The translations under genes were made by a program, and so were the position numbers. From Candidatus Electrothrix sp. GW3-4 (GTDB taxonomy: Bacteria; Desulfobacterota; Desulfobulbia; Desulfobulbales; Desulfobulbaceae), in the NCBI RefSeq assembly GCF_037902255.1, contig NZ_CP147990.1, forward strand, positions 3,060,001-3,092,000: 32,000 nt of DNA, in the 5' to 3' direction. Below are positions 3,065 to 17,083 of this stretch, in pieces. The stretch's first letter is position 1; each line of letters starts with the position of its first letter. Under the pieces are notes generated by a model. It saw nothing but the letters and a program-made list of their open reading frames with translations, did not search any database and was not told the DNA's origin.

Positions 3065-4438
3065 TTACAGCACCAGCTCGAACTTGGTTTCAGGATCATC
3101 CCGATCTTTGCGATCAAGCAAAACGGTGAGGATCTTCTCCAAGAGGCGGAGACCTCCTTTGTAGCCGACCGTGGGAAAGTACTGATGCCCCTGACGATCC
3201 AGGATAGGAAAGCCCCAGCGAATAAAGGGTACGTCCTCATCACGGGCAATGTACTTGCCGTAAGTGTTGCTGATCAGCAGATCCACCGGCTCATTCTTCA
3301 TCCACTGATGGAGGAGGAAGAAGTCGCCTTTTGCCTTAACATTGACCTCATAAGGCATATCTGCTGTGATCTCCTTAATGCGCTTCTCGAACTTCTTGCC
3401 CGGAGTACCGGTAATAATGTGGACCGGACACATATCAATGGAGACCAGGAACTCTGTCATGGCGATGAGCTGATCCGGGTCGCCAGCCAAGGCCACCTTC
3501 TTGTTATAGAAATACTGGTGCATATCGGAAATCAGGTCCACCAGCTGACCGCGCTCGGTCATGATTTCCTCGGGCACGTTGACACCGGCCAAGGTGCGCA
3601 GGGCCTCGATAAAACGATCCGTCGCTTTCAGACCAAAGGGCATATCCAGCACGGTGCAGGGTACCTTGTATTTTTTGTCCAGCTGGCGCGCCGCATCGGC
3701 TGAGCACCACTCGCCCAGGGCCAGGGTACCGGTTGAGTCAGCAGTGGACTGCAGCTCCGCAATAGTGGTTCCGCCTGCCGGAAACATCTTATACTCACCG
3801 GTCAGTGGGCTGTTAAGCACGCCCGAGGTGTCTGGAAACATGATGGTGGAAACACCCATCAATTTGCTGATCCGTTTGAGCTCTTCCATGTCGCAAGGCT
3901 CAACCCAGCCGGGAATGAGATTCACCTTGCCGTTCTTCTTGCCTGTAGGCTCGGCCAGCTCGGTCATCGCCTTAACCATATTGGAGAACCCGGTCACATG
4001 GGAACCGACATAGCTGGGCGTGGATGCGCCAATGACGTATTTACCTTCCGGGATCTTGCCTTCCGTGATCGCCTTCTTGCGAATCTGGGGTAGATCGTCG
4101 CCGATAGTCTCGGACAGACAGGTGGTATGCACTGCCACGATGTCCGGGTTATACACCGTAAAGATATTGTTGAAGGCCTGGGTCAGGTTGGCCTGGCCCC
4201 CGAACACGGACGCGCCTTCAGTGAAAGAGCTGGTTCCGGCGGAAATAGGCTCTTTATAATGCCGGGTCAGGGTTGAACGATGATAAGCGCAGCAACCCTG
4301 GGAACCGTGGCTGTGCGGCAGGCATCCGTGAATGCCCAGCGCCGCATACATGGCACCGATAGGCTGGCAGGTCTTGGCCGGATTAATGGTCAGGGCCTTG
4401 CGCTCGCTGATTTCTTTGGGAGTATGTCGTAATAACAT
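3065..4438 (-). CDS. nifK: Nitrogenase MoFe protein beta chain NifK
   Basis: 457 aa. INPAKTCQPIGAMYAALGIHGCLPHSHGSQGCCAYHR carries the P-cluster Cys residues, and TTCLSETIGDDL is present. It follows nifD, with a GAGG ribosome-binding site upstream. Confidence 0.95.
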   Translation of the reverse strand: MLLRHTPKEISERKALTINPAKTCQPIGAMYAALGIHGCLPHSHGSQGCCAYHRSTLTRHYKEPISAGTSSFTEGASVFGGQANLTQAFNNIFTVYNPDIVAVHTTCLSETIGDDLPQIRKKAITEGKIPEGKYVIGASTPSYVGSHVTGFSNMVKAMTELAEPTGKKNGKVNLIPGWVEPCDMEELKRISKLMGVSTIMFPDTSGVLNSPLTGEYKMFPAGGTTIAELQSTADSTGTLALGEWCSADAARQLDKKYKVPCTVLDMPFGLKATDRFIEALRTLAGVNVPEEIMTERGQLVDLISDMHQYFYNKKVALAGDPDQLIAMTEFLVSIDMCPVHIITGTPGKKFEKRIKEITADMPYEVNVKAKGDFFLLHQWMKNEPVDLLISNTYGKYIARDEDVPFIRWGFPILDRQGHQYFPTVGYKGGLRLLEKILTVLLDRKDRDDPETKFELVL

Positions 4439-4461
4439 CCTGTGTTACCTCGTATTTTCAT

Positions 4462-4484
4462 GCAGGGGCACGGCGTGCCCCTGC
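4462..4484 (-). repeat. GC-rich hairpin (REP-like family member) in the nifD-nifK spacer
   Basis: The + strand reads GCAGGGGCAC-GGC-GTGCCCCTGC, a 10-bp perfect stem, followed by TGTTTTTTT. On the nif (minus) transcript the hairpin is preceded by an A-run, not followed by a U-run. Confidence 0.6.
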
Positions 4485-4507
4485 TGTTTTTTTCCGCATG
4501 TTGAATC

Positions 4508-4535
4508 GTAGGGACGACCGGCGGGTCGCCCCTAC
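4508..4535 (-). repeat. REP-like hairpin GTAGGGGCGACC..GGTCGTCCCTAC in the nifD-nifK spacer
   Basis: The minus strand reads GTAGGGGCGACC-CGCC-GGTCGTCCCTAC, a 12-bp stem with one bulge. It shares the GTAGGGGC head with copies at 6985, 25210, 29934 and 29985. Confidence 0.55.
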
Positions 4536-4545
4536 ATATCCCGGA

Positions 4546-6189
4546 TTATTCCCAGACAAAGGTGCCAGAAAGCTGCGGATTATCCTGCCACGGAGCCTTC
4601 ATATAGCTCCAGACCTTACTGCTTACCAACCGATCAATCTCCTTATAGAAATTGATCGCACCCTTGAAGCCAGCATAAGGTCCACCAGAATCGTAGCTGT
4701 GCAGCTGCTTCATGGGCACGCCCAACTTCTGGATGGAGAATTTCTCTTTGATACCAGCGCAAAAGATATCCGGTTTCATCAGCTCAACCAGTTTCTCGGC
4801 CTCGTACTGGTTCAAATCATCAATAACCAGGGTGCCGTCTTCCATATCCGGGGCAAGCCCTTCGTAATCCTTGAACTTCAAACCCTTTTCTTCCAGGGTC
4901 TTCAAGGCCTCCTCGGTCTTGCGCGGGCTGTAGCGTTCTGGATCGGCCTCAACCTCAAGCTCCTCAATGTTCCGGCTGTCCGCATCAAGCTTGATAAACG
5001 GCAGCACCCGACGCCCCTCATAGTCATCACGATGGGCAAACTCGTATCCGGCAGAGATAGTCTTCATACCCAGCTCGTTAAAGAGCTCCTGGTAATGATG
5101 GGCTCTGGAACCACCCACAAACATCATGGCTGTCTTTCCCTTGGTACGATCCTGAGCATCTTTGGCTGCTGCATCCACCTCAGGCATTTCTTCGGCAATG
5201 ACCGCTTCCACCTTGTCGATCAATTTCTGATCTTCAAAATAGGCGGCAATCTTACGCAATGACTTGGCTGTCGCCTCGGCACCGATGAAGTTGACCTTGA
5301 TCCACGGGATACCGAATTTGGTTTCCAGCATGTCGGCCACATAGTTGATGGACCGATGACACATAACTGCGTTCAGATCTGCCTGATGGGCCGTGGCAAA
5401 CTGCTCATAGGTGGAGTTGCCAGAAAAAGTCGAGATATTGGTGATACCGCATTTTTTAAAGACCCGATCAATCTCAAACCCGTCGCCACCGATGTTATAC
5501 TCACCCAGCAGGTTAATCTTGTATTTCCCCTCCACCGGCTCGTCATTCTCGCCCACGATATGGCGAAAAACCTGATTATTGGCAATATGATGGCCCGCAG
5601 ACTGAGAAACACCCTTATACCCCTCACAGCTGAAGGCGTAGACATTGCAGTCGCCGAACTTCTCCTTCATCTGCCTGGATACGGTATGAATGTCATCACC
5701 GATCAGGCCCACCGGACAGGTAGCGAAAATAGCGATGGACTTGGGATGAAACAGGTCGTAGGCCTCCTGAATGGCTGTGGCCAGCTTCTTTTCCCCACCG
5801 AAAATGATATCCTGATCCTGCATATCAGTGGAAAAACAGTAGTTCATAAAGTTTTCGCCATCCGGGCCTTCCGGGCCAGGATCGGTCTGGTTACGTCGGG
5901 TCAACCAAGCGTAAAAGCTACACCCAATGGGTCCATGGACCAGATTGACGATATCGCGTGTCGGCCCCATAATAACGCCCTTACAACCGGCGTAGGTACA
6001 CCCGCGCATGGTGATGATGCCTGGAATGGTACGAACGTTGGCCGTGATTTCCGGCGTACCGTTCTCCAGGGCCTCGTTAATCATTATCTGCTTGGCGCGT
6101 TTACGGGCCACCTTGGGCGGATACTTCTTGATCAGCTCCGCCTTAATATCGGTGGGATCCCACTGCACCAGTTTTTCTGCTGCTCCCAT
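4546..6189 (-). CDS. nifD: Nitrogenase MoFe protein alpha chain NifD
   Basis: 547 aa. P-cluster Cys residues lie in RGCTYAGCKG, HGPIGC and ATCPVG. FeMo-co ligands lie in AVMCHRS (Cys) and KQLHSYD (His). There is no delta-subunit gene between D and K, so this is a Mo-type enzyme. Confidence 0.95.
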   Translation of the reverse strand: MGAAEKLVQWDPTDIKAELIKKYPPKVARKRAKQIMINEALENGTPEITANVRTIPGIITMRGCTYAGCKGVIMGPTRDIVNLVHGPIGCSFYAWLTRRNQTDPGPEGPDGENFMNYCFSTDMQDQDIIFGGEKKLATAIQEAYDLFHPKSIAIFATCPVGLIGDDIHTVSRQMKEKFGDCNVYAFSCEGYKGVSQSAGHHIANNQVFRHIVGENDEPVEGKYKINLLGEYNIGGDGFEIDRVFKKCGITNISTFSGNSTYEQFATAHQADLNAVMCHRSINYVADMLETKFGIPWIKVNFIGAEATAKSLRKIAAYFEDQKLIDKVEAVIAEEMPEVDAAAKDAQDRTKGKTAMMFVGGSRAHHYQELFNELGMKTISAGYEFAHRDDYEGRRVLPFIKLDADSRNIEELEVEADPERYSPRKTEEALKTLEEKGLKFKDYEGLAPDMEDGTLVIDDLNQYEAEKLVELMKPDIFCAGIKEKFSIQKLGVPMKQLHSYDSGGPYAGFKGAINFYKEIDRLVSSKVWSYMKAPWQDNPQLSGTFVWE

Positions 6190-6218
6190 ATTGTTCTCCT
6201 CAAATTTCCTGTTCAGGT

Positions 6219-6593
6219 TCAGACGATAGCCGCTTCACCCTTCTCTCCGGTCCGAACCCGGACGGAATCAGCTACTGGCAGGACAAAAATCTTGCCGTCA
6301 CCGGGCTTGCCGGTCTGGTTGGGCGCGATAATAGCCTGAACAACATCGTCAACCTTATCGTCTTCAACCACCACGGTTACCACTCGCTTGGGATAAAGCT
6401 TTCCTTTTTCTCCCAGCACGGCTGCCGCTTCTTCGTATCCCTCATCGACCCCCTCAAGCACCTTAGGATTGGCGAATCCTTTGCCCCGGCCCTGGGCCTC
6501 GCGGACAAAATACGCGTCAACCCCGGCATCGCTTAAGGCCTGCTTGGTCTGGTTCATCATATTGATGCGTACCACAGCGATGACTTCTTTCAT
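6219..6593 (-). CDS. nifI2: PII-like nitrogenase regulator NifI2 (GlnB family)
   Basis: 124 aa with a PII fold signature (MKEVIAVVRINMMNQTKQALSDAGVDAYFVREAQGRGKG...). It is the second of two PII genes between nifH and nifD. Its start overlaps the nifI1 stop by 1 nt (TAATG). Confidence 0.85.
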   Translation of the reverse strand: MKEVIAVVRINMMNQTKQALSDAGVDAYFVREAQGRGKGFANPKVLEGVDEGYEEAAAVLGEKGKLYPKRVVTVVVEDDKVDDVVQAIIAPNQTGKPGDGKIFVLPVADSVRVRTGEKGEAAIV

Positions 6594-6937
6594 TACGCGG
6601 CCTCCTCGACTGCTCCTTCTTTCACTCCGGAACTGATGGTATAGACGTCCTCAACCTCACTGACAAAGATCTTACCGTCACCAAAGGCACCCTTTTCAGA
6701 GGTCCTGGCTGTATCCATGATGGTTTGGATAACAAAATCTTTATCTTCGTCCCGCACGACGGACATGAGCATCATCTTCGGAATCTCATCATAGGTGACA
6801 TCACCGATTTTAATACCACGTTGTTTACCGCGTCCAGCAACAGAATATTTGGTCACTGCCGGAAAGCCCGCATCCATGAGGGCAGCAAGAACTTCATCGG
6901 ATTTCTCCGGCCGAACAATGGCTCTGATCATTAACAT
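6593..6937 (-). CDS. nifI1: PII-like nitrogenase regulator NifI1 (GlnB family)
   Basis: 114 aa: MIRAIVRPEKSDEVLAALMDAGFPAVTKYSVAGRGKQRGIKIG, a PII T-loop region. It is the first gene after nifH and has an AGGAGA ribosome-binding site. Confidence 0.85.
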   Translation of the reverse strand: MLMIRAIVRPEKSDEVLAALMDAGFPAVTKYSVAGRGKQRGIKIGDVTYDEIPKMMLMSVVRDEDKDFVIQTIMDTARTSEKGAFGDGKIFVSEVEDVYTISSGVKEGAVEEAA

Positions 6938-6984
6938 GAGTTATTCTCCTGAAATATTATATATAGACGATTCTGTGGTGATCT

Positions 6985-7012
6985 GTAGGGACAACGGCAC
7001 ACCGCCCCCTAC
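6985..7012 (-). repeat. REP-like hairpin in the nifH-nifI1 spacer
   Basis: The minus strand reads GTAGGGGGCGGTGTGCCGTTGTCCCTAC, with GTAGGG/CCCTAC forming the stem base. A further imperfect hairpin (GCCCCCTGTGGTCGCC...GGCGACACGGGGC) lies at about 7039..7083. Confidence 0.5.
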
Positions 7013-7104
7013 CGTTTTATTCCCGCACGCCGGGTTGAGCCCCCTGTGGTCGCCTTTTTTCTGCAACCGGGGCGACACGGGGCCCAGCCCCTAAACGCCC
7101 GGTG

Positions 7105-7986
<882 letters not shown>

Positions 7987-8035
7987 TTAGATGTTTGCGT
8001 CGAGAACATCTTTGTGTCATTGTTGCTCCCTATAT

Positions 8036-8051
8036 AGCAAGTGCCGTGCCG
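8036..8051 (-). promoter_or_regulatory. Sigma-54 (-24/-12) promoter of the nifH operon
   Basis: The minus strand reads cGGCAC-GGCAC-TTGCT, against the consensus TGGCAC-N5-TTGCW. GG-N10-GC spacing is exact. It lies about 105 nt upstream of the nifH ATG. Confidence 0.65.
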
Positions 8052-8146
8052 TTCGAGATATTTTTTTTATACTGTTTAATATTAACTAGCTACATACAAT
8101 GCGCTATTACAGGAGACAAACTGACTGTTTTTTCTTACAACTGTTC

Positions 8147-8162
8147 TGTTCTGTTGTTTACA
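8147..8162. promoter_or_regulatory. Candidate NifA upstream activator sequence (TGT-N10-ACA)
   Basis: TGTtctgttgtttACA is an exact TGT-N10-ACA match, about 100 bp upstream of the -24/-12 element. An A/T-rich tract (8056..8100) lies between them and could bend DNA or bind IHF. Confidence 0.45.
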
Positions 8163-8219
8163 TTTAAGAAGGTGCGCTCCGTTTTTGTCGACACGTTGCA
8201 CTACAACAGATTGTGATGA

Positions 8220-8254
8220 GCAGTTGAAAAGCCCTTGCAAGGTATTTCAACTGC
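8220..8254. promoter_or_regulatory. 35-nt inverted repeat (possible operator or structured element) upstream of the cassette
   Basis: GCAGTTGAAA-agCCTTGCAAGGta-TTTCAACTGC has 10-bp perfect outer arms and an inner 10-bp palindrome, CCTTGCAAGG. No T-run follows on either strand, so it is not a classic terminator. Confidence 0.4.
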
Positions 8255-8352
8255 TGATGGATGAAAAAATTACTACAGTATATCAGTCTGTTTTGTTATA
8301 GTTTGATTTGTCATCAACATGATCCCTATGAATTCTACCGAAGGAACATATT

Positions 8353-8745
8353 ATGGAACCCGTTATTACCAGCATTGCTGCGGCTGTTGCCCTTGGAGCG
8401 GCGGCAGGACTCAAGGATACAGCGTCAAAGGCTGTGACAGATGCCTATGCCGGGCTAAAGAAGTTGATTCAGGATCGATACAATAAGGATGAAGATGTGA
8501 CTGATGCGTTTGATTATCTGGTCAAGAAACCGGAGGCGGAGGGCAGGCAGCAGGAGCTGGCAAAGGCCCTGCAGGAAGTCGAAGCGGATAAGGAGCATGA
8601 GCTGGTTCATGCGGCTGAAGCCTTGCTGGCAGAAGTGGAGAAGCAGCCGGGCGGAGAAGAAGCTGTCAACCACATTGTTAATCAGTTGATAATAGGGGAC
8701 GGAAACATCGTTGCCGGTGCAGGGGACGTGAATATCAAGCTCTGA
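8353..8745 (+). CDS. Small helical protein with a glycine-zipper-like N-terminus and a C-terminal NQxxxGDxNIVAGxxDVNI motif (candidate effector or adaptor of the adjacent NLR-like NTPase)
   Basis: 130-aa ORF with a GAAGGAA ribosome-binding site 8 nt upstream. The N-terminus is ITSIAAAVALGAAAGL, the middle is charged and helical, and the C-terminus is NQLIIGDGNIVAGAGDVNIKL*. That tail is repeated at the N-terminus of the next gene. Confidence 0.65.
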   Translation: MEPVITSIAAAVALGAAAGLKDTASKAVTDAYAGLKKLIQDRYNKDEDVTDAFDYLVKKPEAEGRQQELAKALQEVEADKEHELVHAAEALLAEVEKQPGGEEAVNHIVNQLIIGDGNIVAGAGDVNIKL

Positions 8746-8753
8746 GCTCTCCT

Positions 8754-11228
8754 ATGAATCAGGAAGTCAACGGGGACAGGAATATTGTCGCAGGTCGGGA
8801 TGTCAATATCACGATTCAGGACGGAAAATCGGCCCCGCCTCCCCTCTCCAACAAATTCCAGCTTGCCAAGCTGCCGCGCACCGATGCCCGGCTTTTCGGC
8901 AGGGAAGAGGAACTAAACCTGCTTGACCAAGCCTGGCAGGAGGAAAAGACTAAGGTGCTGGTGCTCACCGCCTTTGGTGGCATGGGCAAGACCGCCCTGA
9001 TGCAGACCTGGCTGGACGCAAAAGGCTATGCAGGCGCGGATGCGGTCTATACTTGGTCCTTCTATTCTCAGGGCACAGCCGAAGACCGGCAGGCATCGGC
9101 GGCGGAGTTCTTTGCCAGCGCCCTGCCCTGGTTCGAGCATGACGGCAGCCCGCTGCCCTCGGAGCATGACCGGGGCCTGCGGTTGGCCGAGCTGGTCTGT
9201 CGTCAGCGTACCCTGCTCATTCTTGACGGTCTGGAGCCGCTGCAATATCCCTTAGCCGGGGCGATGGATGGTGCCTTGCGGGATAAGGGAATACTCTGCC
9301 TTTGCCGTCAGTTGGCAGCACAGAATAACGGTTTATTGCTCATCTCCTCCCGCCAGCCGGTGCAGGAGCTGGTCGATCGACCCGGTGTGGAGCAGCACGA
9401 GCTGGACCCGCTTTCCAAAGCAGCCGGGGTGGAACTCTTTCGGGCGGCAGGCATCATCGGCACGGACAAGGAGCTTGTTGCCGCAGTGAATACCTATAAC
9501 GGCCATGCCCTGTCACTGAATCTGCTGGCGACCTATCTGTGCGAATACGAGAACGGAGACATCCGTAAGCAGGACAGCCTGCGTTGCCTGACCGAATTCC
9601 CGGAAGAGACCCGCACCAGTCGCCACGCCTTTAAGGTGATGGCAGCATACGAGCAACAGTTATCTGGCACAGCGGATTTGCAGGTGCTCTACAGTCTTGG
9701 ATTATTTGATCGTCCGGTGTCTGCCGGAACGATGAACTGCCTCCGTGAATCAGAAATTGAGCACGTCGGTGGGCCGAATAATGACAAAGTTTTTCATGCG
9801 GCCTGTAGACGGCTGCGCAGATTGGGGCTGCTGAACAGGGATGATGCGGAGCATCCCGGCACACTTGACTGCCACCCGTTGGTGCAGCAGTATTTCGGCA
9901 AACGCTTAGAGGAGTTGCACCCTGAAAGCTGGCAGCAGGCCCATGCCCGGCTGTACGAGTATTTCAAGGCACTGCCGGATAAGGAGCTGCCCGATACTTT
10001 GGAGGAGATGGAACTGCTCTTTGCTGCGGTGCGGCATGGGTGTGCGGCGGAGATGCACCATGAGACGCTGCATAAGGTATATTATCCAAGAATATTAAGA
10101 AATAATGAAGATTATCTATGTGTTAAAATTGGCTCGACGAATGCTGATCTTACTATTTTATCTCGTTTTTTTGATAAACTTTGGCAGGTACCGATCTCAA
10201 CGTTAAGTAACTACGATAGGGCTCTGCTGATAAGTAGGGTGGGATTCATTCTGCAGGGATTAGGTCGCCTAAATGAGGCACTTCCAACAATACAAGTTGG
10301 GCTTAAATGGTATATCAATCAGGATGACATGATAAATGCAGCAATCATGGCTGGGAATTTAAGTCAATTATATCTATCTATCGGTGAGGTTAGCAAAGCG
10401 GTTAATGCTGGTCGTCAGGGCTTTGAATTTGCCGTTAAGAGCAATTGTACTTCTCAGCGAATTGATAGTCTGACTGACCTTGCTGATGCTCTGCATCAAA
10501 GCGGTACGGTTTATGAATCCCGTGACCTTTTTGTTGAAGCGGAAAAGAAGCAGAAATTGGAAGCTGACCTGCTGTATTCTATGCGCGGGATTCATTACTG
10601 TGATTTACTGCTGACAGCAGGGGGATGGCACGAGGTCAAAAAACGAGCAAAAAAGACATTAGGATGGGTAAAAAAGGATGGTGGTTTATTAGACGTTGCC
10701 TTGGATGAACTTTCTCTGGGGCGAGCTGCTGTGCAGGAGGCGATTGCCCTGTCCGATCAGCTTACCGTTTTTTCACATCTCGGTCTTGCGCCAGATTTAG
10801 CATGCCTTTCTCTGCCCGGAAGCACCATAGCATCGGCCAATCGAGTTATTGAAGCCATGCGCCGGGCCAATGATTGGCTAAATCAGGCGGTTAATGGTCT
10901 GCGTGAAGCAGGACAGGAAGACGATTTGCCTCGCGGCCTGCTTGCCCGTGCCGCGTGGCACCGGTGGGCAGCGGTGCTGCTTGATCAATCCGACATCACC
11001 CAAGCTGTGCAGGATTTGCAGGAAACCGAAGAGATCGCCCAACGCGGTGGCATGAAGCTGCACCTGATTGATTTCCACCTTGAGGCGGCCCGCCTGAGCC
11101 TTACCGCAGACCACGACATCCTCGGCCGCACCCCTGCCGAACATCTGGCCGCTGCCAAAAAAGGCATTGACGAAACCGGCTATAACCGCCGCCTGCCCGA
11201 AGTAAAAAACATCGAAGAATTGCTTTAA
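8754..11228 (+). CDS. STAND-class P-loop NTPase (NB-ARC/AAA_16-like) with C-terminal TPR-like repeats and a short N-terminal motif in place of an effector domain (bacterial NLR-like)
   Basis: 824 aa. The N-terminus is MNQEVNGDRNIVAGRDVNITIQDG. LFGREEELNLLDQAW precedes Walker A (AFGGMGKTAL, 8976..8993). Walker B is RTLLILDGLE and an MHD-like CHPLVQQYF is present. The C-terminal ~380 aa is helical-repeat/TPR-like (e.g. LGRLNEALPTIQVGLKWY, AGNLSQLYLSIGEVSKAVNAGRQGFEFA). Confidence 0.85.
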   Translation: MNQEVNGDRNIVAGRDVNITIQDGKSAPPPLSNKFQLAKLPRTDARLFGREEELNLLDQAWQEEKTKVLVLTAFGGMGKTALMQTWLDAKGYAGADAVYTWSFYSQGTAEDRQASAAEFFASALPWFEHDGSPLPSEHDRGLRLAELVCRQRTLLILDGLEPLQYPLAGAMDGALRDKGILCLCRQLAAQNNGLLLISSRQPVQELVDRPGVEQHELDPLSKAAGVELFRAAGIIGTDKELVAAVNTYNGHALSLNLLATYLCEYENGDIRKQDSLRCLTEFPEETRTSRHAFKVMAAYEQQLSGTADLQVLYSLGLFDRPVSAGTMNCLRESEIEHVGGPNNDKVFHAACRRLRRLGLLNRDDAEHPGTLDCHPLVQQYFGKRLEELHPESWQQAHARLYEYFKALPDKELPDTLEEMELLFAAVRHGCAAEMHHETLHKVYYPRILRNNEDYLCVKIGSTNADLTILSRFFDKLWQVPISTLSNYDRALLISRVGFILQGLGRLNEALPTIQVGLKWYINQDDMINAAIMAGNLSQLYLSIGEVSKAVNAGRQGFEFAVKSNCTSQRIDSLTDLADALHQSGTVYESRDLFVEAEKKQKLEADLLYSMRGIHYCDLLLTAGGWHEVKKRAKKTLGWVKKDGGLLDVALDELSLGRAAVQEAIALSDQLTVFSHLGLAPDLACLSLPGSTIASANRVIEAMRRANDWLNQAVNGLREAGQEDDLPRGLLARAAWHRWAAVLLDQSDITQAVQDLQETEEIAQRGGMKLHLIDFHLEAARLSLTADHDILGRTPAEHLAAAKKGIDETGYNRRLPEVKNIEELL

Positions 11229-11620
11229 CATGGCATTATCCCAACAACACCCAAAAGAAATGACATTTTACGCATAAAGTAACTTAGTTGTCACTCCACG
11301 ACAAATCTTGATCCCGGCCTTGGTTCCCCCCGAACACCTTGTCCTTTTAAGGGAATAAAGACACAATAAATTAATCGCAAATGAAAACAAAGAGCTAGCA
11401 AGAAGAAAAACAAATATATTTCTACCAGCACCCCCCATAACATTTCTTCGCACCTCCTCTTCACTCCACAGCCCCGCCTTACATTTATGTATATAGCGCC
11501 AGCAAAGAACCCAATATTGTAAACTTTCCTCCCTTATTGACCACTCAAACACCCTCCCTCTCACTCTCCAACACTTTGATTTTCCACCCCTTCTCGCATC
11601 ATCTCGAAAAAACAAAAAAT

Positions 11621-11636
11621 TGGCACATGATGTGGA
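11621..11636 (+). promoter_or_regulatory. Partial sigma-54-like element upstream of nifV (good -24, poor -12)
   Basis: TGGCAC-atgat-gTGGa has a perfect -24 hexamer, but the -12 position reads GG instead of GC. It lies 83 nt upstream of the nifV ATG. I found no TGT-N10-ACA site within 220 bp upstream. Confidence 0.3.
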
Positions 11637-11718
11637 TACTTATATCTATATCTTTTTTTTACCAGTAGTTCAGATTCCGTCGTCTCCCTGAACTGAGCGA
11701 CCAAATCATAACGAACAG

Positions 11719-12834
11719 ATGCGCATCAATCAGCCTCAACTTATTGACTCCACCCTTCGGGAAGGGGAGCAGACCCCCAGTGTTGCTTTCACTGATCAGG
11801 ATAAGCACAAAATTATTCAGGGACTCTGCCGCATTGGCGTTGACGAAATTGAACTCGGTATAGCATCTCCGCTCAACACCTATCTGCCCAATCTTGTCAA
11901 GGAGGCCAAAAAAATAACCGCAGGATCCTGCCGTCTCAGCCTGTGGTGCCGGTGCAAAGCAGAGGATATTGCCTTTGCCGCCACCTGTTTCCCTGACCTG
12001 CTGGCCCTGTCCATTCCGGTTTCAGACCCCCATATTCAGGAACGACTGGGAAAAGACAGAGATTGGATAAGCAAAACCCTTACTGCTTCGCTTCAACAGG
12101 CCTGGGCTGCTGGCATCCCTGCTGTTTCTGTGGGAATGGAAGATGCCTCCCGGGCTGACACGGATTTTCTTGTTGCAACGGCAAAAATTGCTCAGCAGCA
12201 CGGGGCAACTCGAATTCGTTTGGCAGACACGGTGGGTATCTGTTCTCCGGCTCGTATGACACGCCTCGTGCAGACAATGAAAGAGGCTGTCTCACTGCCG
12301 GTTGCTGTCCACTGTCATAATGATTTCGGCATGGCCACTGCCAACTCCATTGCCGCTTTGGAGGCCGGGGCTGACAGTCTTGACGCCACTGTGCTCGGCC
12401 TTGGCGAACGAGCAGGCAACTGCCGTCTCGAAGAGGTTATCGGCTACCTTGCTCTCGTACTCGGTGAACAAAGGTACCACCCGGAATTTCTGCCAGAACT
12501 CTGCCAACTCGTGGCAGAAAGCGCAGGAAGAGATATTGCTGAAAACCATCCCTTGGTCGGTTCAGCCATATTCACCTGTGAAAGCGGGTTACATCAACAT
12601 GGGCTGACTGTTAATCCAGATATGTACGAACCATACGCCCCAGAACGTGTCGGCGGAACACGACGACTCCGTTTCGGGGAAAAAACCGGGGCCAGAGCTA
12701 TCCAGCTGCAACTCCATAAGGCAGGGCTTCGACTTGATGAAATGCAGATCAAAGACTTGGTCCATCGGATACGTTCCGGCGGGCAGGTACTTAACCAGGA
12801 GCAGCTTCTCCGCTTTGCCGCTAAATGCTGCTAA
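11719..12834 (+). CDS. nifV: Homocitrate synthase NifV
   Basis: 371 aa. LIDSTLREGEQTP and HCHNDFGMATANSIAALEAGA are DRE-TIM metallolyase motifs of the IPMS/homocitrate synthase family. The protein is short and lacks a LeuA regulatory domain. nif neighbourhood. Confidence 0.88.
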   Translation: MRINQPQLIDSTLREGEQTPSVAFTDQDKHKIIQGLCRIGVDEIELGIASPLNTYLPNLVKEAKKITAGSCRLSLWCRCKAEDIAFAATCFPDLLALSIPVSDPHIQERLGKDRDWISKTLTASLQQAWAAGIPAVSVGMEDASRADTDFLVATAKIAQQHGATRIRLADTVGICSPARMTRLVQTMKEAVSLPVAVHCHNDFGMATANSIAALEAGADSLDATVLGLGERAGNCRLEEVIGYLALVLGEQRYHPEFLPELCQLVAESAGRDIAENHPLVGSAIFTCESGLHQHGLTVNPDMYEPYAPERVGGTRRLRFGEKTGARAIQLQLHKAGLRLDEMQIKDLVHRIRSGGQVLNQEQLLRFAAKCC

Positions 12835-12859
12835 AAAATCTGAATAAGAGGAAAAAATC

Positions 12860-14488
12860 ATGCTTAAGGAGAAAGAGGAAGCCAACCTCTTCCCCAACCA
12901 GAGCTTCATCACCGAAGGTACTGAAGCACTGGAAATCAAGGCGTTATATCGTATTGTCAAACTCATCGGGTCTGCTGTCCATCTGGACACGACCCTCTCT
13001 GCCATCCTCAAGGTTCTCCATGATACCTTACGCATGGAACGTGCCACCTTGGCACTTCTTGATGAAAAGCAGGAGCACCTGAGCATCCGTGCCTCATACG
13101 GCCTGAGCATCAAAGAGGAACAGCGCGGTATCTACAATCTTGACGAGGGGATCTATGGCAAGGTCTTCCGTAGCGGAGCTCCATTCATTGTCCCTGATAT
13201 CAACAGCGAGCCCCTTTTCCTGAACCGTACCGGTTCTCGCCAGATGTTTAGTAAAACCAAGCTCTCCTTTATCGGGGTACCGGTACTGCTCAAAGAAAGA
13301 CCCGTAGGCGTTCTCAGTGTTGATCGCCTTTTCGGCTTAGAGATCTCCCTTGAAGAAGATGTCCGCTTTCTGACGGTCCTGTCCACCCTGATCTCCCAGT
13401 TTCTCAACCTGAACCAGGCGATTCGCCAGGACCGCGAGAAGCTGGTTTCAGAAAATCAGAGCCTCAAGGCCCGGCTCCATGCCCGTCATAAAAAACATTA
13501 TATTATCGGCAAGTGCAAAACTATGCAGGAGGTCTTCTGGAGCATTGAACGGGTTGCACCAAGCCGCGCCAGTGTGCTGCTCCTTGGAGAATCCGGTACC
13601 GGAAAAGAGCTGGCTGCCCAGGCTATCCACGAGGCCAGTCCTCGACGAGAAAATCCTTTTGTGAAGATTAACTGTGCCGCCTTGCCTGAGACCCTTCTGG
13701 AAAGTGAGCTCTTTGGCCATAACAAAGGTGCCTTTACCGGTGCTGACGGGACCAGGGAAGGACGCTTTGAGCTGGCAGATACAGGTACCCTCTTCCTTGA
13801 CGAGATCGGTGAGATGCCCCTCCCCCTTCAGGCAAAATTGTTGCGGGTCCTTCAGGAACAGCAGTTTGAGCGTTTGGGTTCAAATCGGACCATCAATGTA
13901 GATGTCCGTATCATTGCAGCAACCAATGTCAGCCTGGAAAAGGCGGTTGCTAATGGTAGCTTCCGTAATGACCTCTACTATCGACTCAACGTGGTCCCCA
14001 TTGTTCTGCCTCCGCTTCGGGAGCGAAAGGATGACATCCCTCTCTTGGCGGATTTCTTCCTTAAAGCGAGCAATAAACGGAATGACAAAAATGTACGGAT
14101 GACCAGAGAGTTCCTGGATTTAATGACTGATTACGACTGGCCAGGCAATGTCCGAGAGCTCCAGAACCTGATGGAGCGCCTGGTTATCCTCTCCACAGGC
14201 GACATGCTCTCTGTCCACGACCTTCCAGGATACTTCCTCCAGCCTCCGGGTGAACGGCTCATACCGGACAGAGAAGAACCAACTCGGCCTCTTCAGATGC
14301 ATGAGCAAAGAATGACAGAAAACGGAAGCCCTCGTTCTCTCCAGGAATTGGAACGCGAGCAGGTGGAAGCGGCCCTGAAACGGCACGGCTGGGTTCAGGC
14401 TCGGGCAGCCCGTGAACTGGGTCTTACTCAACGCCAGATCGGCTATCGGATTAAGAAATTTAGTCTCAAGCGCCCTACATTATATTGA
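12860..14488 (+). CDS. nifA: Sigma-54-dependent transcriptional activator, NifA-like (GAF-AAA+-HTH)
   Basis: N-terminal GAF-like region. Walker A is GESGTGKE, the sigma-54 contact loop is GAFTGA, and Walker B is LFLDEIGE. C-terminal Fis-type HTH: [22 protein letters not shown]. There is no receiver domain. It starts 25 nt after nifV. Confidence 0.8.
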
Positions 14489-14632: not shown

Positions 14633-17083
14633 TTACTTCTTAGATTTCCCTGGATTTGCAACCAGCACATGTCCTTCTGCAGTCGTTGCATTGCCGGATT
14701 GATCTGTCGCTGTGATCGTCCAGGCGATATTGTCGCCGACCCCGCCGGAATCGGCAATAGTCAGTGTATCTCCAGACGTACTGACGACACAGGACTGCAT
14801 TTTACTGTGCTCCGTGCCGTTCCCGGTAAAACCATAGCAGCGGTAATCCACTATCTCAACTATTGCTGAACAGTTATCTGCTGCGCTTGCCGTGAATGAA
14901 ACAGGTGCATCCGGTGGAATAATGGTCTCAGGTGCATTTGTATTTATAATCGGAGCAACATTGTCCTCTACAGTAACCATGGCAGCGGCGGAGCTTGTAT
15001 TACCGTTTACATCTATTGCAGTCAAGGTAACAGAGTTTGCTCCCAAATCACTGCAGGTAAAATTTGATGGATCAACGGTCAATGAAGCAATGCCGCATGC
15101 ATCGGACGTTCCATTATCAATTGCAGGAGCCGTTATTGAACGGTTACCATGGATATCGAGCGAAACAATAATGTGTTGAGCCCGTACATTCGGCGGAGTA
15201 ACATCGGCAACAACCACCTGCTGTGTCTGACTTGACGTGTTCCCCTTGCCATCGTCAAAGGTCCAGGTTACCTTATGCTCTCCCTGCTCACTGTAACTCA
15301 GAGGATCATTTGTGGTTCCGACAACTGCCCCGGCACAGTTATCCAGTGCCCTGGCTGGAGAAGATATGGTTGCCGAACACTCTCCTGTTACCTGCGGCAG
15401 AGGTGCCACATCAGGGACAGGCGGCAAACTATCAACGACTGTCACATTGGCCACGCAGGAACCAGATGCATTGCTGTCATCGGTTACAGTCAGAGTAACC
15501 GCATGTTGCGCACCTATATCCGCGCAGGTGAAGTTCGTTCTGGAAAGACCGAAGATTATCGGATCTCCATCTGGATCATAAGAACCGTTGTCAACCGGAA
15601 AAGGCGTTAGTACAGCCTGACCATTGGAATCAAGAGTCAGTGTAACATCTTTGCATTGAGCCACAGGCGATTCATTAGGCGGCAATACCCACTCCACAAC
15701 AGCTTCATTGGACGTTAATATATTGCCCTGACTATCCTCAAAACTCGCAACGACAATATCTGTACCAAGGGTGGTTCCGGTATAGACAAGCACTGCTTTT
15801 CCTTTACTATCTGTAGCGATAGTCTCATTCAATCCTGCATGGGGACCGGATATGACAATAAATGTAACATCCCGGTCAACAACAGGATCTCCACCATCAT
15901 CTTGAACAGTTGCAGCAACGGAATATTCATCAGTTACCTCATGGATTACGGAAGCAGGAGAGAGTATAATACCTTCACCCACCACAGCGGTTGTTGAACC
16001 GAAGAACAAGGCTGCGAAAAAAATACTATCATCATTGGAAGGATTGAAGGTGTCAATCGTAATCCCTGTATCACCATCACTCACATAAGGAAGGAGATCA
16101 TACAGCTCATCATCCGTTCGTTGGTTCACAGGGCCTGCATAGGGATTGACAGGATTCGCGGGACTGTCACCGATACCGCCCACGGTTATCAGCCCGCCAT
16201 TATCTGCATACCCATCATCTTGGCCGCCAGCACTTGAGGTCAGGCGTATATTGTTAACATCAACCTCACTAAACTGATACCTATAGATGTCAGACTGGTA
16301 ACCATAGGAGATCCCCAAAGAGAATTCCATAAACAAATTCGGATCAGAGGTGTTAACAGGTTCAGAGAGACCAATATGAAATGTATCTCCTGATGTCTGC
16401 TGGGCACCAAAAAACAAGACAACGGTATTACTAACTGTCTGATTCGGATCATCAAAGATCACTGCAAGGATAGAACCGTCCAGATTTATTATTTCCTTGA
16501 GCGTGATATTAATAATTCCAGCGGGAGCGGCATCAACAAGCGGGGCGATAATGGGCGTTACGTCTGCCCAGGCATGATCTATTCCCCACCTAAGAGGCCC
16601 AAAAACATCAGTATCCAGACTAACCTGGTATTCCCAGCCAACATTGACATCATTTAGCACCACCGCTCCATCCGGTAACGGAGTACCACTAAGACCCCAG
16701 ACATCGGCTGTGGCCAGATAAGCCCCTCGCACAGTAGCACCTGCTGGCTTACTCACTTGGATGCTCCCCTCTATATTGGTTGCGACCCCTAATCCGTCAA
16801 CCGAAAGAGTTATAAAACCGGTTTCAGAGACAACGGGCTGAAGTTTAGTCGAAGAGGACTTAGCTGCAGAGCTTTGATCATAACTCATCTCCGGCATCGA
16901 AATATTATCAATGTCAGCAAGACTCCTTTCAACGGTGCTGGGGACAGGTGCAAACAACTCGACAGTTCCTGGTTCATTTTGAGCAATTCCGGGAAATGCC
17001 CAAAATAAATGTACCAAGAAAAATAAAAAAACCAACAACAGCCTACTTTTAAAAGATAAAACCATATCCCCTCCATTTTTCAA
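14633..17083 (-). CDS. Large secreted surface or adhesin-like protein with Ig-like (Big_1-like) and HYR-like repeats
   Basis: 816 aa. Signal peptide: LLLVFLFFLVHLFWAFPGIAQ. The ~330-aa N-terminal domain is unassigned. There is a Big_1-like segment (ATVQDDGGDPVVDRDVTFIVISGPH...) and repeated modules ending NFTC(A/S)D(I/L)GA..VTLT..D..GN..S......VTV.D. A HYR-like segment reads GECSATISSPARALDNCAG...HKVTWTFDDGKGN. Confidence 0.8.
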   Translation of the reverse strand: MKNGGDMVLSFKSRLLLVFLFFLVHLFWAFPGIAQNEPGTVELFAPVPSTVERSLADIDNISMPEMSYDQSSAAKSSSTKLQPVVSETGFITLSVDGLGVATNIEGSIQVSKPAGATVRGAYLATADVWGLSGTPLPDGAVVLNDVNVGWEYQVSLDTDVFGPLRWGIDHAWADVTPIIAPLVDAAPAGIINITLKEIINLDGSILAVIFDDPNQTVSNTVVLFFGAQQTSGDTFHIGLSEPVNTSDPNLFMEFSLGISYGYQSDIYRYQFSEVDVNNIRLTSSAGGQDDGYADNGGLITVGGIGDSPANPVNPYAGPVNQRTDDELYDLLPYVSDGDTGITIDTFNPSNDDSIFFAALFFGSTTAVVGEGIILSPASVIHEVTDEYSVAATVQDDGGDPVVDRDVTFIVISGPHAGLNETIATDSKGKAVLVYTGTTLGTDIVVASFEDSQGNILTSNEAVVEWVLPPNESPVAQCKDVTLTLDSNGQAVLTPFPVDNGSYDPDGDPIIFGLSRTNFTCADIGAQHAVTLTVTDDSNASGSCVANVTVVDSLPPVPDVAPLPQVTGECSATISSPARALDNCAGAVVGTTNDPLSYSEQGEHKVTWTFDDGKGNTSSQTQQVVVADVTPPNVRAQHIIVSLDIHGNRSITAPAIDNGTSDACGIASLTVDPSNFTCSDLGANSVTLTAIDVNGNTSSAAAMVTVEDNVAPIINTNAPETIIPPDAPVSFTASAADNCSAIVEIVDYRCYGFTGNGTEHSKMQSCVVSTSGDTLTIADSGGVGDNIAWTITATDQSGNATTAEGHVLVANPGKSKK

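Follow-up and report, generated by a model that had tools for sequence, protein, structure and literature searches.

A probable Bell/NLR gene pair with a shared terminal motif in the cable bacterium Candidatus Electrothrix sp. GW3-4

Two adjacent genes of the cable bacterium Candidatus Electrothrix sp. GW3-4 are probably a module of the Bell/BASS/NLR type for regulated cell death or immunity, and would act through amyloid signalling. The analysis established the gene pair and its architecture, a motif shared by the C-terminus of the first protein and the N-terminus of the second, the co-variation of this motif between partners, the purifying selection on it and its predicted disorder, together with the Bell-like and Apaf-1-like folds predicted for the two proteins. 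The architecture, the logic and one related protein are already in the literature, and the pair brings no new principle.

The gene pair and its shared motif

Gene A (8353..8745, forward strand) is an open reading frame of 130 aa coding for a putative Bell-type effector with predicted membrane targeting, in which a helical domain is followed by the signalling motif at the C-terminus. It is followed, after a spacer of 8 nt between its stop and the next start (8746..8753), by the collinear gene B (8754..11228, forward strand), an open reading frame of 824 aa for an NLR-like receptor in which the motif precedes a linker, a predicted STAND NTPase of NB-ARC fold and a putative TPR region. The products showed 100% identity with WGN25_13660 (A) and WGN25_13665 (B) of the same host. 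A gap of 8 nt was also present in the related loci L008 and L009, and in the other pairs it ranged from -4 to +4 nt. There was no in-frame start codon upstream of B, and no strong Shine-Dalgarno sequence was visible before it. The pair is adjoined by nif genes and no obvious defence island was found around it. The Ig-like protein at 14633..17083 was tested as the CARDB neighbour of other Electrothrix loci and was not the same; similarly, the gene upstream in L008 was tested as nifH and was not nifH.

The motif of A, NQLIIGDGNIVAGAGDVNIKL, comprises 21 aa and occupies residues 110-130, at the extreme C-terminus (8680..8742, forward strand). Its counterpart in B, NQEVNGDRNIVAGRDVNITI, comprises 20 aa and is located right after Met1, in residues 2-21 (8757..8816, forward strand); residues 2-24 of B are encoded by 8757..8825. 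A preliminary description of this DNA had reported the shared motif, with 13 identical residues, one single-residue indel and synonymous codon differences in six of the 13, and we confirmed its coordinates, translations and counts exactly. Among the 20 aligned codons 7 were identical, 6 differed synonymously and 7 were replacements, with a nucleotide identity of 39/60. When the full proteins were aligned locally, the best match between A and B was this terminus-to-terminus one, whose score of 52 was reached in 19 of 2000 composition shuffles of A (Gumbel p about 0.01); in the comparison of the terminal 25x25 residues, the score of 52 contrasted with a maximum of 31 among the 5580 other A/B 25-mer pairs. 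When the motif was searched as a regular expression in the six frames of the 32-kb window (the whole stretch of DNA analysed), only two sites were found, the termini of A and B. The residues N, Q, G, V and I account for 14/21 positions in the motif of A and 13/20 in that of B, Pro is absent from both, and the motif of A contains an internal pseudo-repeat of 9 residues (GDGNI / GDVNI). Disorder was predicted for the motif of A (pLDDT <50 for residues 112-130 in the AF2 model) as well as for the N-terminus of B (pLDDT <50, residues 1-26). The consensus of the local type was Qx[VI]xGxxN[IV][VF][AS]GxG[DN]VxI, with an invariant Asn that corresponds to N118 of A and N10 of B.

Pairs of this kind were described by Dyrka et al. 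2020 (bioRxiv 10.1101/2020.01.06.895854; J Mol Biol 432:6005), who collected 346 Bell/NLR pairs with Bell proteins of 120-140 aa and motifs of about 25 aa; 91% of the pairs were collinear, and in 57% the gap did not exceed 10 bp. In that work the BASS motifs are about 20-25 aa long and show an enrichment of Q, N, G, V and I, P and K being scarce. The A/B pair agrees with it in having a common terminal motif in adjacent genes, in the length of the motif and in its composition. Within the published BASS set the best match was the BASS4 entry TAA74256.1, with a score of 65 (shuffle mean 37, maximum 51), while the typical BASS4 members (C06) scored no higher than shuffled queries. A link with a named BASS family would come from this one atypical BASS4 entry.

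Predicted folds of the effector and the receptor

Bell domains have been defined by Dyrka et al. 2020 as helical domains of ~100 aa in proteins of 120-140 aa, in which the N-terminal helix is hydrophobic and residue 2 or 3 is acidic. Judging from its sequence and its model, A would be a Bell-type helical effector: it has 130 aa, begins with M-E-P, so that there is a glutamate in position 2, and continues with the hydrophobic helix VITSIAAAVALGAAAGL. The Bell-like helical domain covers residues 1-108 (8353..8676, forward strand), and in the AF2 model a helical bundle extended over residues 3-113, with helices at 3-20, 26-43, 47-58, 63-75, 82-96 and 101-113 and pLDDT of about 80-90. A gave no matches in the Pfam and NCBIfam scans and only a spurious GajB match (E 0.0034) in the PADLOC 2.0 scan; the PDB sequence search retrieved designed helical repeats only, and with Foldseek the model had no significant match to HeLo, MLKL or Bab in the PDB. 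By phmmer, A was connected with proteins (E 1e-11 to 9e-4) that end in tails near-identical to Bell-side sequences already published. The tail of P0084 matched WP_043701079.1 (BASS4), that of P0068 matched C02_s036 (BASS2), those of P0034 and P0029 matched TAA74256.1, and further ones were of BASS3 type (KYTVDVRGAxGVQVGDH). In precomputed Pfam annotation the homologues of A are also labelled PF20701 HetE-N, a label which local hmmscan did not reproduce, and the literature search on PF20701 or HetE-N found nothing relevant.

In B, the motif is followed by a Pro-rich linker (8817..8903, forward strand) that contains the family-conserved sequence PPPLSxKFxLxxLPxTDxxLFGRE; this linker is kept across the homologues of B, and the N-terminal module ahead of it varies. 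Next comes the NOD module, residues about 51-410 (8904..9983, forward strand), inside which are located the P-loop GGMGKT (8976..8993, forward strand) and the Walker B sequence LLILDG (within 8904..9983, forward strand). Both sequences were invariant among the homologues of B, the invariant residues including G75, G76, G78, K79 and D158. The AF2 model, which covered the N-terminal half of B, had a pLDDT of 83, and Foldseek matched its NOD module to Apaf-1 (E 6e-11, TMq 0.62), a STAND-TPR protein, CED-4, plant resistosomes and NLRs, and MalT being other matches of the model. On this structural basis B is predicted to be a STAND NTPase with a fold of Apaf-1/NB-ARC type, in agreement with the STAND NTPases that the preliminary description expected as carriers of the N-terminal motif. 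All the Pfam matches of B were below threshold: NACHT (24.0 bits, cut-off 26.7), AAA_16, NB-ARC and TPR_12. The last of these (10221..10427, forward strand; 30.0 bits, cut-off 30.1) lies in the putative helical-repeat C-terminal sensor region (about 10000..11225), and the labels TPR_12 and TPR_MalT were found on homologues of B. B had no match above threshold in NCBIfam and no match at all in PADLOC 2.0 (Avs, bNACHT and others), and the PDB sequence search retrieved nothing. In remote homologues the N-terminal position of the motif is occupied by TIR, SEFIR or lipase effector domains.

Related loci and alternative origins of the motif

The motif was clearly shared by the C-terminus of the effector and the N-terminus of the adjacent receptor in 11 of 13 related loci, the weak pairs being L007 and L012 (motif match scores 25 and 18). 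The motif types paired like with like, FSG with FSG in 3/3 cases and VAG with VAG in 3/3, and Gly-rich, BASS6-like effector tails faced Gly-rich receptor N-termini. The summed score of the true pairs was 737, against 478 +/- 45 when the partners were permuted, and none of 20,000 permutations reached 737. Between orthologues, dN was 0.07 against a dS of 0.92 in the motif of A and 0.02 against 0.25 in that of B, so that both copies are under purifying selection; for A against its orthologues dN/dS was 0.09-0.20. The preliminary description had argued that the peptide is under selection, as opposed to a recent DNA duplication or an assembly artefact. Selection at the level of the peptide, and not of the DNA, is supported by the 6/13 synonymous differences, by dN being far under dS on both sides and by the lack of unusual structure in the junction RNA. 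The preliminary description had also considered that one member of orthologous pairs might lack the motif; no orthologous pair lacked it on one side, and both sides switched type together.

The motif profile was searched against 1.84 billion representative proteins, with a profile made of the window and P-protein fragments and biased toward the effector side. This check had been proposed in the preliminary description and the outcome was the one predicted there. There were 12 complete matches. Eleven were at protein termini, ten of them at the very C-terminal end of proteins with 58-157 aa and one at the N-terminus of an NLR fragment; the twelfth was a Bell-motif-motif-NACHT fusion. The remaining matches in the library were partial, of 10-13 positions, in Ig-like repeat proteins. 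A location of the motif at random positions of proteins, the other objection raised beforehand, was not what we found, complete matches being almost solely terminal. The same motif class is borne by two unrelated STAND families, and the receptor body of the B family carries at least six N-terminal motif types. It was also observed that tails are exchanged among diverged Bell domains in the cable-bacterium clade, and that some sensors of this clade have no NTPase.

These data bear on three rival readings. Two similar coding segments only 77 nt apart, with a 15-nt direct repeat of 87% identity, could suggest that the DNA was duplicated recently, that a gene conversion crossed the junction or that the assembly is wrong. 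That repeat is the only one detectable between the segments at the DNA level and therefore there was no recent duplication; the nucleotide identity is just 39/60, six of the 13 identical residues use different codons, the copies are in different reading frames of separate genes, and the same layout appears, with diverged sequences, in independently assembled genomes and metagenomes. The orthologous loci already refute this origin, whose probability we regard as negligible. Chance, or a sequence of generic type that has no function in pairing (beta-helix, hexapeptide repeat or low complexity), is very improbable and was already disfavoured. It could claim that the Ig-like repeat surface proteins P0085, P0093 and P0098 also contain the AGTGNITIK-like second half of the motif and that the shuffle of the single pair gave a p of just about 0.01, but the terminal position of 11/12 complete matches, the result of the partner permutations and the confinement of the regular expression to two termini in the whole window speak against it. 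Moreover, neither Hexapep nor any other Pfam family matched the motif peptides, A or B above threshold; Hexapep was absent even at E up to 10, and the internal period is of 9 residues and not 6. An element at the RNA level, such as a translational coupling or a regulatory structure at the junction, might be imagined from the 8-nt gap and the lack of a strong Shine-Dalgarno signal before B. Considering that the region 8670..8830 folds no better than shuffles (z = +0.49) and that the divergence is mostly at synonymous sites, this explanation is disfavoured and can hardly be right; the segments are, besides, direct and not inverted repeats.

Proposed mechanism, known systems and cable bacteria

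By analogy with the published family, the pair may work as follows. B would stay inactive as long as no trigger, for example a phage component, is bound by its putative TPR region. The nucleotide-dependent oligomerisation of its NB-ARC-type module would then bring together several of the disordered N-terminal motifs of 20 residues, and these, once clustered, could fold cooperatively into a cross-beta (beta-arch) nucleus able to template the homologous disordered motif at the C-terminus of A. The conversion of this tail would release the helical Bell domain, whose hydrophobic N-terminal helix would attack the membrane and cause cell death. It is from the published family that we infer amyloid formation, templating, membrane attack and the role in defence or cell death, and a beta-arch or amyloid state of the motif would fit the BASS paradigm. 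Points against the module are the single atypical BASS4 entry behind the link with a named family, the lack of profile matches above threshold, the PF20701 label that local hmmscan did not reproduce, the absence of a significant Foldseek match of A to HeLo, MLKL or Bab, the weak pairs L007 and L012 and the position beside nif genes.

The motif could alternatively be a homotypic adaptor tag in which stoichiometric binding, e.g., by beta-strand augmentation, replaces self-propagating amyloid, in the manner of the effector-associated domains (EADs) of Kaur et al. The terminal position, co-variation, purifying selection and modular swapping need only a specific heterotypic recognition, and the adaptor logic is well known among STAND conflict systems. 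We consider this reading unlikely: the motif has just ~20 residues, with an abundance of N, Q, G, V and I, disorder is predicted for it on both A and B, its length and composition are as reported for BASS, no Pfam EAD family matched, and every BASS type tested experimentally so far is an amyloid prion, BASS1 and BASS3 having been reported to form prions and fibrils.

Taking the amyloid module as the preferred reading, the closest systems are the pairs of Dyrka et al. 2020, with which A/B shares the short Bell protein, the repetition of the motif on an adjacent collinear protein with predicted NB-ARC fold and putative TPR, and a multicellular filamentous bacterium as host. TAA74256.1, which has the tail of a close relative and is the closest published instance, was already in their BASS4 set; the preliminary description had not recognised the architecture as a known one. 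Those pairs are mainly from Actinobacteria and Cyanobacteria and this one is from Desulfobacterota; furthermore, its motif is an outlier with respect to typical BASS4, and locally the family has diversified strongly, one NLR body carrying at least six types of motif. In E. coli, Bab/Agp (BASS11) mediates abortive infection and phage defence (Ibarlosa et al. 2024, bioRxiv 10.1101/2024.11.07.622273). There too a small effector related to Bell proteins ends in an amyloid motif, which is repeated at the N-terminus of the adjoining sensor, and the system is the experimental proof for this architecture, infected cells being killed via amyloid templating. Unlike A/B, which lies beside nif genes, it is found in a prophage defence hotspot, in a different host and with a BASS11 motif. 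The fungal HET-S / NWD2 system (HeLo and HRAM / NACHT-WD NLR) also has adjacent genes with the motif at the C-terminus of the effector and at the N-terminus of the NLR, and the logic is alike, with a helical, pore-forming effector that has a membrane helix at its N-terminus. Nevertheless, A has no detectable sequence or Foldseek similarity to HeLo, and where HET-S has two pseudo-repeats of 21 residues, A has a single motif with an internal half-repeat of 9. As regards the EADs (Kaur, Burroughs, Iyer, Aravind 2020/2021, eLife), a short module is placed on a separate effector and on the N-terminus of a STAND NTPase, and the hosts are again multicellular prokaryotes. Pfam models exist for the EADs, and these are small folded domains, in contrast to the disordered A/B motif of ~20 aa with amyloid-like composition, and none of the families EAD1-11 was found on A, B or the motif peptides.

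Cable bacteria are centimetre-long multicellular filaments of Desulfobacterota. The A/B pair would place in them an NLR-linked amyloid signalling so far known mainly from Actinobacteria, Cyanobacteria and E. coli; the literature search found no publication linking cable bacteria to BASS, Bell or NLRs. We tentatively contemplate a wider reading, possible although not the likelier one, which joins an expansion of orthogonal labels, a distinct BASS family of NIVAG/NIFSG type and the sacrifice of cells in the filament. In Electrothrix and Electronema, amyloid signalling based on Bell proteins may have expanded to give mutually orthogonal address labels, with one NLR body bearing at least six types of N-terminal motif and a matching adjacent Bell protein for each. 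As to the NIVAG/NIFSG type of this window, it may be a distinct and undescribed family, common to two unrelated STAND families, to NTPase-less FGE-sulfatase (C-type-lectin-fold) sensors and to CHAT- or caspase-like effectors. If this were true, the pairs could execute the sacrifice of single cells inside a conductive filament, where the death of one infected cell would protect thousands of connected sisters. Such sacrifice would account in genetic terms for the 'ghost cells' that have been reported from cable bacteria (PMC12163305). The diversity of the clade, with several motif types per receptor body, tails swapped between diverged Bell domains and sensors lacking the NTPase, would make it a natural system to study how the specificity of amyloid templating is encoded and kept orthogonal. 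In a profile search of genome contigs with an alignment of 13 sequences, at least two loci were found.

A terminal motif shared by two adjacent genes

Gene A (8353..8745, + strand) encodes a Bell-type effector of 130 aa ending in VNQLIIGDGNIVAGAGDVNIKL, and after a spacer of 8 nt gene B (8754..11228, + strand) encodes an NLR-like receptor of 824 aa that begins with MNQEVNGDRNIVAGRDVNITI. Both are 100% identical to proteins of the cable bacterium Candidatus Electrothrix sp. GW3-4, A to WGN25_13660 and B to WGN25_13665. The 20 aligned codons of the motif common to the A C-terminus and the B N-terminus comprise 7 identical, 6 synonymous and 7 replaced ones, with one single-residue indel besides (39/60 nt identity), in exact agreement with the codon counts of the preliminary description. 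When full A and full B were compared, the top local alignment was this terminal match, whose score of 52 was attained by 19 of 2000 composition shuffles; the terminal 25x25 comparison gave 52 against a maximum of 31 in 5580 other 25-mer pairs from A and B. The motif regex, applied to the six-frame translation of the 32-kb window, matched at the two A/B sites only. The A-side motif (8694..8736) contains an internal 9-residue pseudo-repeat, GDGNIVAGA / GDVNIKL, seen at the DNA level as repeat D2 with 27-nt spacing, and its B-side counterpart is GDRNI / RDVNI with 8-residue spacing. Judged from sequence, these repeats are compatible with a strand-turn-strand unit.

Effector, receptor and their known counterparts

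The architecture of the pair is that reported by Dyrka et al. 2020 (bioRxiv 10.1101/2020.01.06.895854), in which Bell proteins 120-140 aa long, whose first helix is hydrophobic and whose residue 2 or 3 is acidic, carry one of the bacterial amyloid signalling sequences BASS1-10 (about 25 aa) at the C-terminus, and the same BASS stands at the N-terminus of a neighbouring NB-ARC/NACHT-TPR/WD protein. In that work 91% of the pairs were collinear, 57% had gaps ≤10 bp, and the system was confined to multicellular prokaryotes. Fibril and prion formation has been demonstrated for BASS1 and BASS3. In E. coli, the Bell-related Bab and its sensor Agp, both with BASS11, give abortive infection via amyloid templating (Ibarlosa et al. 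2024, bioRxiv 10.1101/2024.11.07.622273). In our literature search no paper was found joining cable bacteria to the Bell/BASS/NLR system.

Protein A starts with M-E-P followed by the hydrophobic stretch VITSIAAAVALGAAAGL. In the AlphaFold2 model (40 homologues) residues 3-113 form a helical bundle (pLDDT about 80-90) and the tail, residues 112-130, has pLDDT <50. Local Pfam, NCBIfam and PADLOC scans of A returned nothing meaningful. Its homologues, all close Bell ones included, bear the precomputed database label PF20701 'HetE-N', which the local Pfam-A hmmscan never reported at E values as high as 10; a version or filter difference may explain the discrepancy. The tails of remote homologues match published Bell-side BASS2, BASS3 and BASS4 entries, which anchors A in the Bell family. 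Against the BASS reference sets distributed with PMC8086366, the top match of the window motif was TAA74256.1, EAIRQTTVEQHVVGHGNVVAGTGDVTAGNISITI, filed under BASS4 (score 65; shuffled-query mean 37, maximum 51) and nearly identical to the tails of the A homologues P0029 and P0034. Since its scores against typical BASS4 members stayed within the shuffled range, the window motif makes up an outlier sub-type. E. marina and E. aarhusensis have the Gly-rich type, which clearly resembles BASS6 (score 85).

The Pfam matches of B were all sub-threshold: NACHT (24.0 bits, cut-off 26.7), AAA_16, NB-ARC and TPR_12 (30.0, cut-off 30.1). The AF2 model of residues 1-420 (pLDDT 83) matched Apaf-1 in Foldseek (E 6e-11, TMq 0.62), with further matches to a bacterial STAND-TPR protein, CED-4, plant NLR resistosomes and MalT; residues 1-26, motif included, had pLDDT <50. 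Neither the P-loop GGMGKT nor the Walker B LLILDG varies among 42 homologues.

Joint variation and possible exchange of the motif

Thirteen additional loci, drawn from genomes and metagenomes, were compared with the pair. In all 13 a Bell-type gene is followed by a receptor gene on the same strand, the gap mostly spanning -4 to +8 nt, with some loci at 42-90 nt. Effector tails match the N-termini of their receptors, and the motif type shifts jointly in both. In the window, L008 and L009, effector NIVAG(V/A)GDVNI goes with receptor NIVAGRD(V/I)(N/H)I; in L002, L003 and L005, NIFSGxGNVTV with N(V/A)FSGxG(D/P)V(H/T)(I/V); in L010, NVVAGTGDV with NIVSGSGDV; in L011, GKVNVISG with GKVNVVSG; in L014, KNIVAGVGNVTV with SNIVAGGNVIV; and in L001 and L006, the Gly-rich GSGAIAQGxGAVAAGAGGIAVGG with GSGAVAHSGGVGAGQGGVAIGG. 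L007 and L012 show weak likeness only, of the [GS]VGxxIG type. The score sum of true pairs was 737, against 478 +/- 45 (maximum 664) for permuted partners, and none of 20,000 permutations attained it. Both genes are under purifying selection, with dN/dS of 0.09-0.20 (A) and 0.15-0.34 (B) when the window is compared with its nearest relatives. For the motif segments alone dN and dS were 0.07 and 0.92 in A, and 0.02 and 0.25 in B, in line with the proposed selection on the motif peptide. Five related loci have a Uma2-family (PF05685) gene directly after the receptor gene (L003 7993..8589; L005 7321..7920; L006 7831..8427; L010 1392..2003; L014 2829..3440); the window has none downstream of B.

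A motif profile of 22 positions, searched in 1.84 billion representative proteins (E up to 1e-3), gave 15 matches, 12 of them spanning essentially the whole motif. In ten of these 12 the motif lies at the very C-terminus of a protein 58-157 aa long (mostly Bell-like, one CHAT-like and one caspase-like); one further match lies at the N-terminus of an NLR fragment, and one is a single ORF with both motif copies. The predicted clustering at termini was thus borne out, with receptor N-termini under-represented, as expected of a profile to which effector-side sequences contributed most. The three matches left covered 10-13 positions only and fell in surface proteins with Ig-like repeats. The single ORF (P0088, 533 aa) runs from a Bell-like domain through the motif (83-102), a linker and a second motif, QTVSGDHNIFTGTGDVKIV, to a NACHT-type P-loop NTPase, and seems to be an effector/receptor pair joined by fusion or by sequencing read-through. 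The CHAT-like (VVLNACYS...) and caspase-like C-terminal fragments, P0097 and P0099, end in NIFSGTGNV, so the same label would serve protease-type effectors too.

Among effectors, at least four unrelated tail types occur on Bell domains that share 60-89% identity with A. P0039, from L005 (Ca. Electrothrix sp. YB6), has a Bell domain just 41% identical to A but differs very little, over its last 30 residues, from proteins with Bell domains 81-83% identical to A, which suggests a module swapped by recombination between diverged Bell genes. On the receptor side, the linker PPPLSxKFxLxRLPxTDxxLFGR is kept, and the 25-35 residues preceding it show at least six short motif types across Electrothrix and Electronema. 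Among the homologues P0100-P0219 the NLR body and linker are constant and the N-terminal module hypervariable. Motif type does not go with receptor similarity, a 74% homologue differing from B and 58-59% homologues having the window's type, and remote homologues carry TIR, SEFIR, lipase-like alpha/beta-hydrolase or transmembrane modules at this position. The NB-ARC receptor of L003 is unrelated to B except for motif and P-loop. L010 and L011 have, as the partner of the Bell protein, an FGE-sulfatase-domain (C-type-lectin-fold) protein of some 280 aa that lacks an NTPase; such partners with a matching N-terminal motif lie at L010 534..1382, L011 2675..2977 and L007 5468..6037, a sensor type without mention in our literature search on BASS. 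Swapping at tails and N-termini, unrelated receptors and FGE-sulfatase partners point to the motif as a portable address label, by which a sensor would reach its own executioner.

Proposed mechanism and genomic setting

The preliminary description had read the motif as a peptide under selection and not a recent duplication; the observation was confirmed and the reading is supported. A recent DNA duplication is disfavoured by the 39/60 nt identity and the six synonymous differences, the repeat detectable at the junction being only 15 nt at 87%. Likeness by chance or through hexapeptide-like sequence is disfavoured by the permutations, the mostly terminal position of whole motifs and the two regex sites, and an RNA-level element by junction folding no better than shuffles (z = +0.49) together with motif dN far below dS. 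The main rival, less likely but compatible with the computational evidence, takes the motif for a non-amyloid homotypic adaptor.

Amyloid signalling in five steps is the most likely mechanism. For amyloid formation and templating, for membrane attack and for the trigger it relies on analogy with the family; architecture, motif co-variation, selection, predicted disorder and folds come from the present analysis. Ligand binding by the TPR region of B would lead to nucleotide-dependent oligomerisation, the N-terminal motifs of B would nucleate a cross-beta fold, and this would template the tail of A and set its helical domain free, so that the N-terminal helix of A could permeabilise the membrane; an infected or damaged cell of the filament would be sacrificed. 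The pair is of an already described system type and its motif a somewhat atypical sub-type; leads beyond it are the diverse motif repertoire, the FGE-sulfatase partners and a possible tie to cell death in the cable-bacterium filament.

In the region 3065..14488 the pair sits within a divergent gap between nifH-nifI1-nifI2-nifD-nifK (7929..3065, − strand) and, on the + strand, a nifV-like homocitrate synthase gene (11719..12834) and a GAF/sigma-54 NifA-like activator gene (12860..14488); these surroundings are no obvious defence island. The homologous pairs of other Electrothrix genomes occupy a different place, adjoining CARDB/Reprolysin-like and Uma2 genes. An 816-aa secreted-looking protein (14633..17083, − strand) was considered as the equivalent of that CARDB neighbour and rejected as not homologous; it has a weak Big_1 Ig-like match only, and contains repeated 'DNGSYDPDGD / DNGTSDACG' segments.
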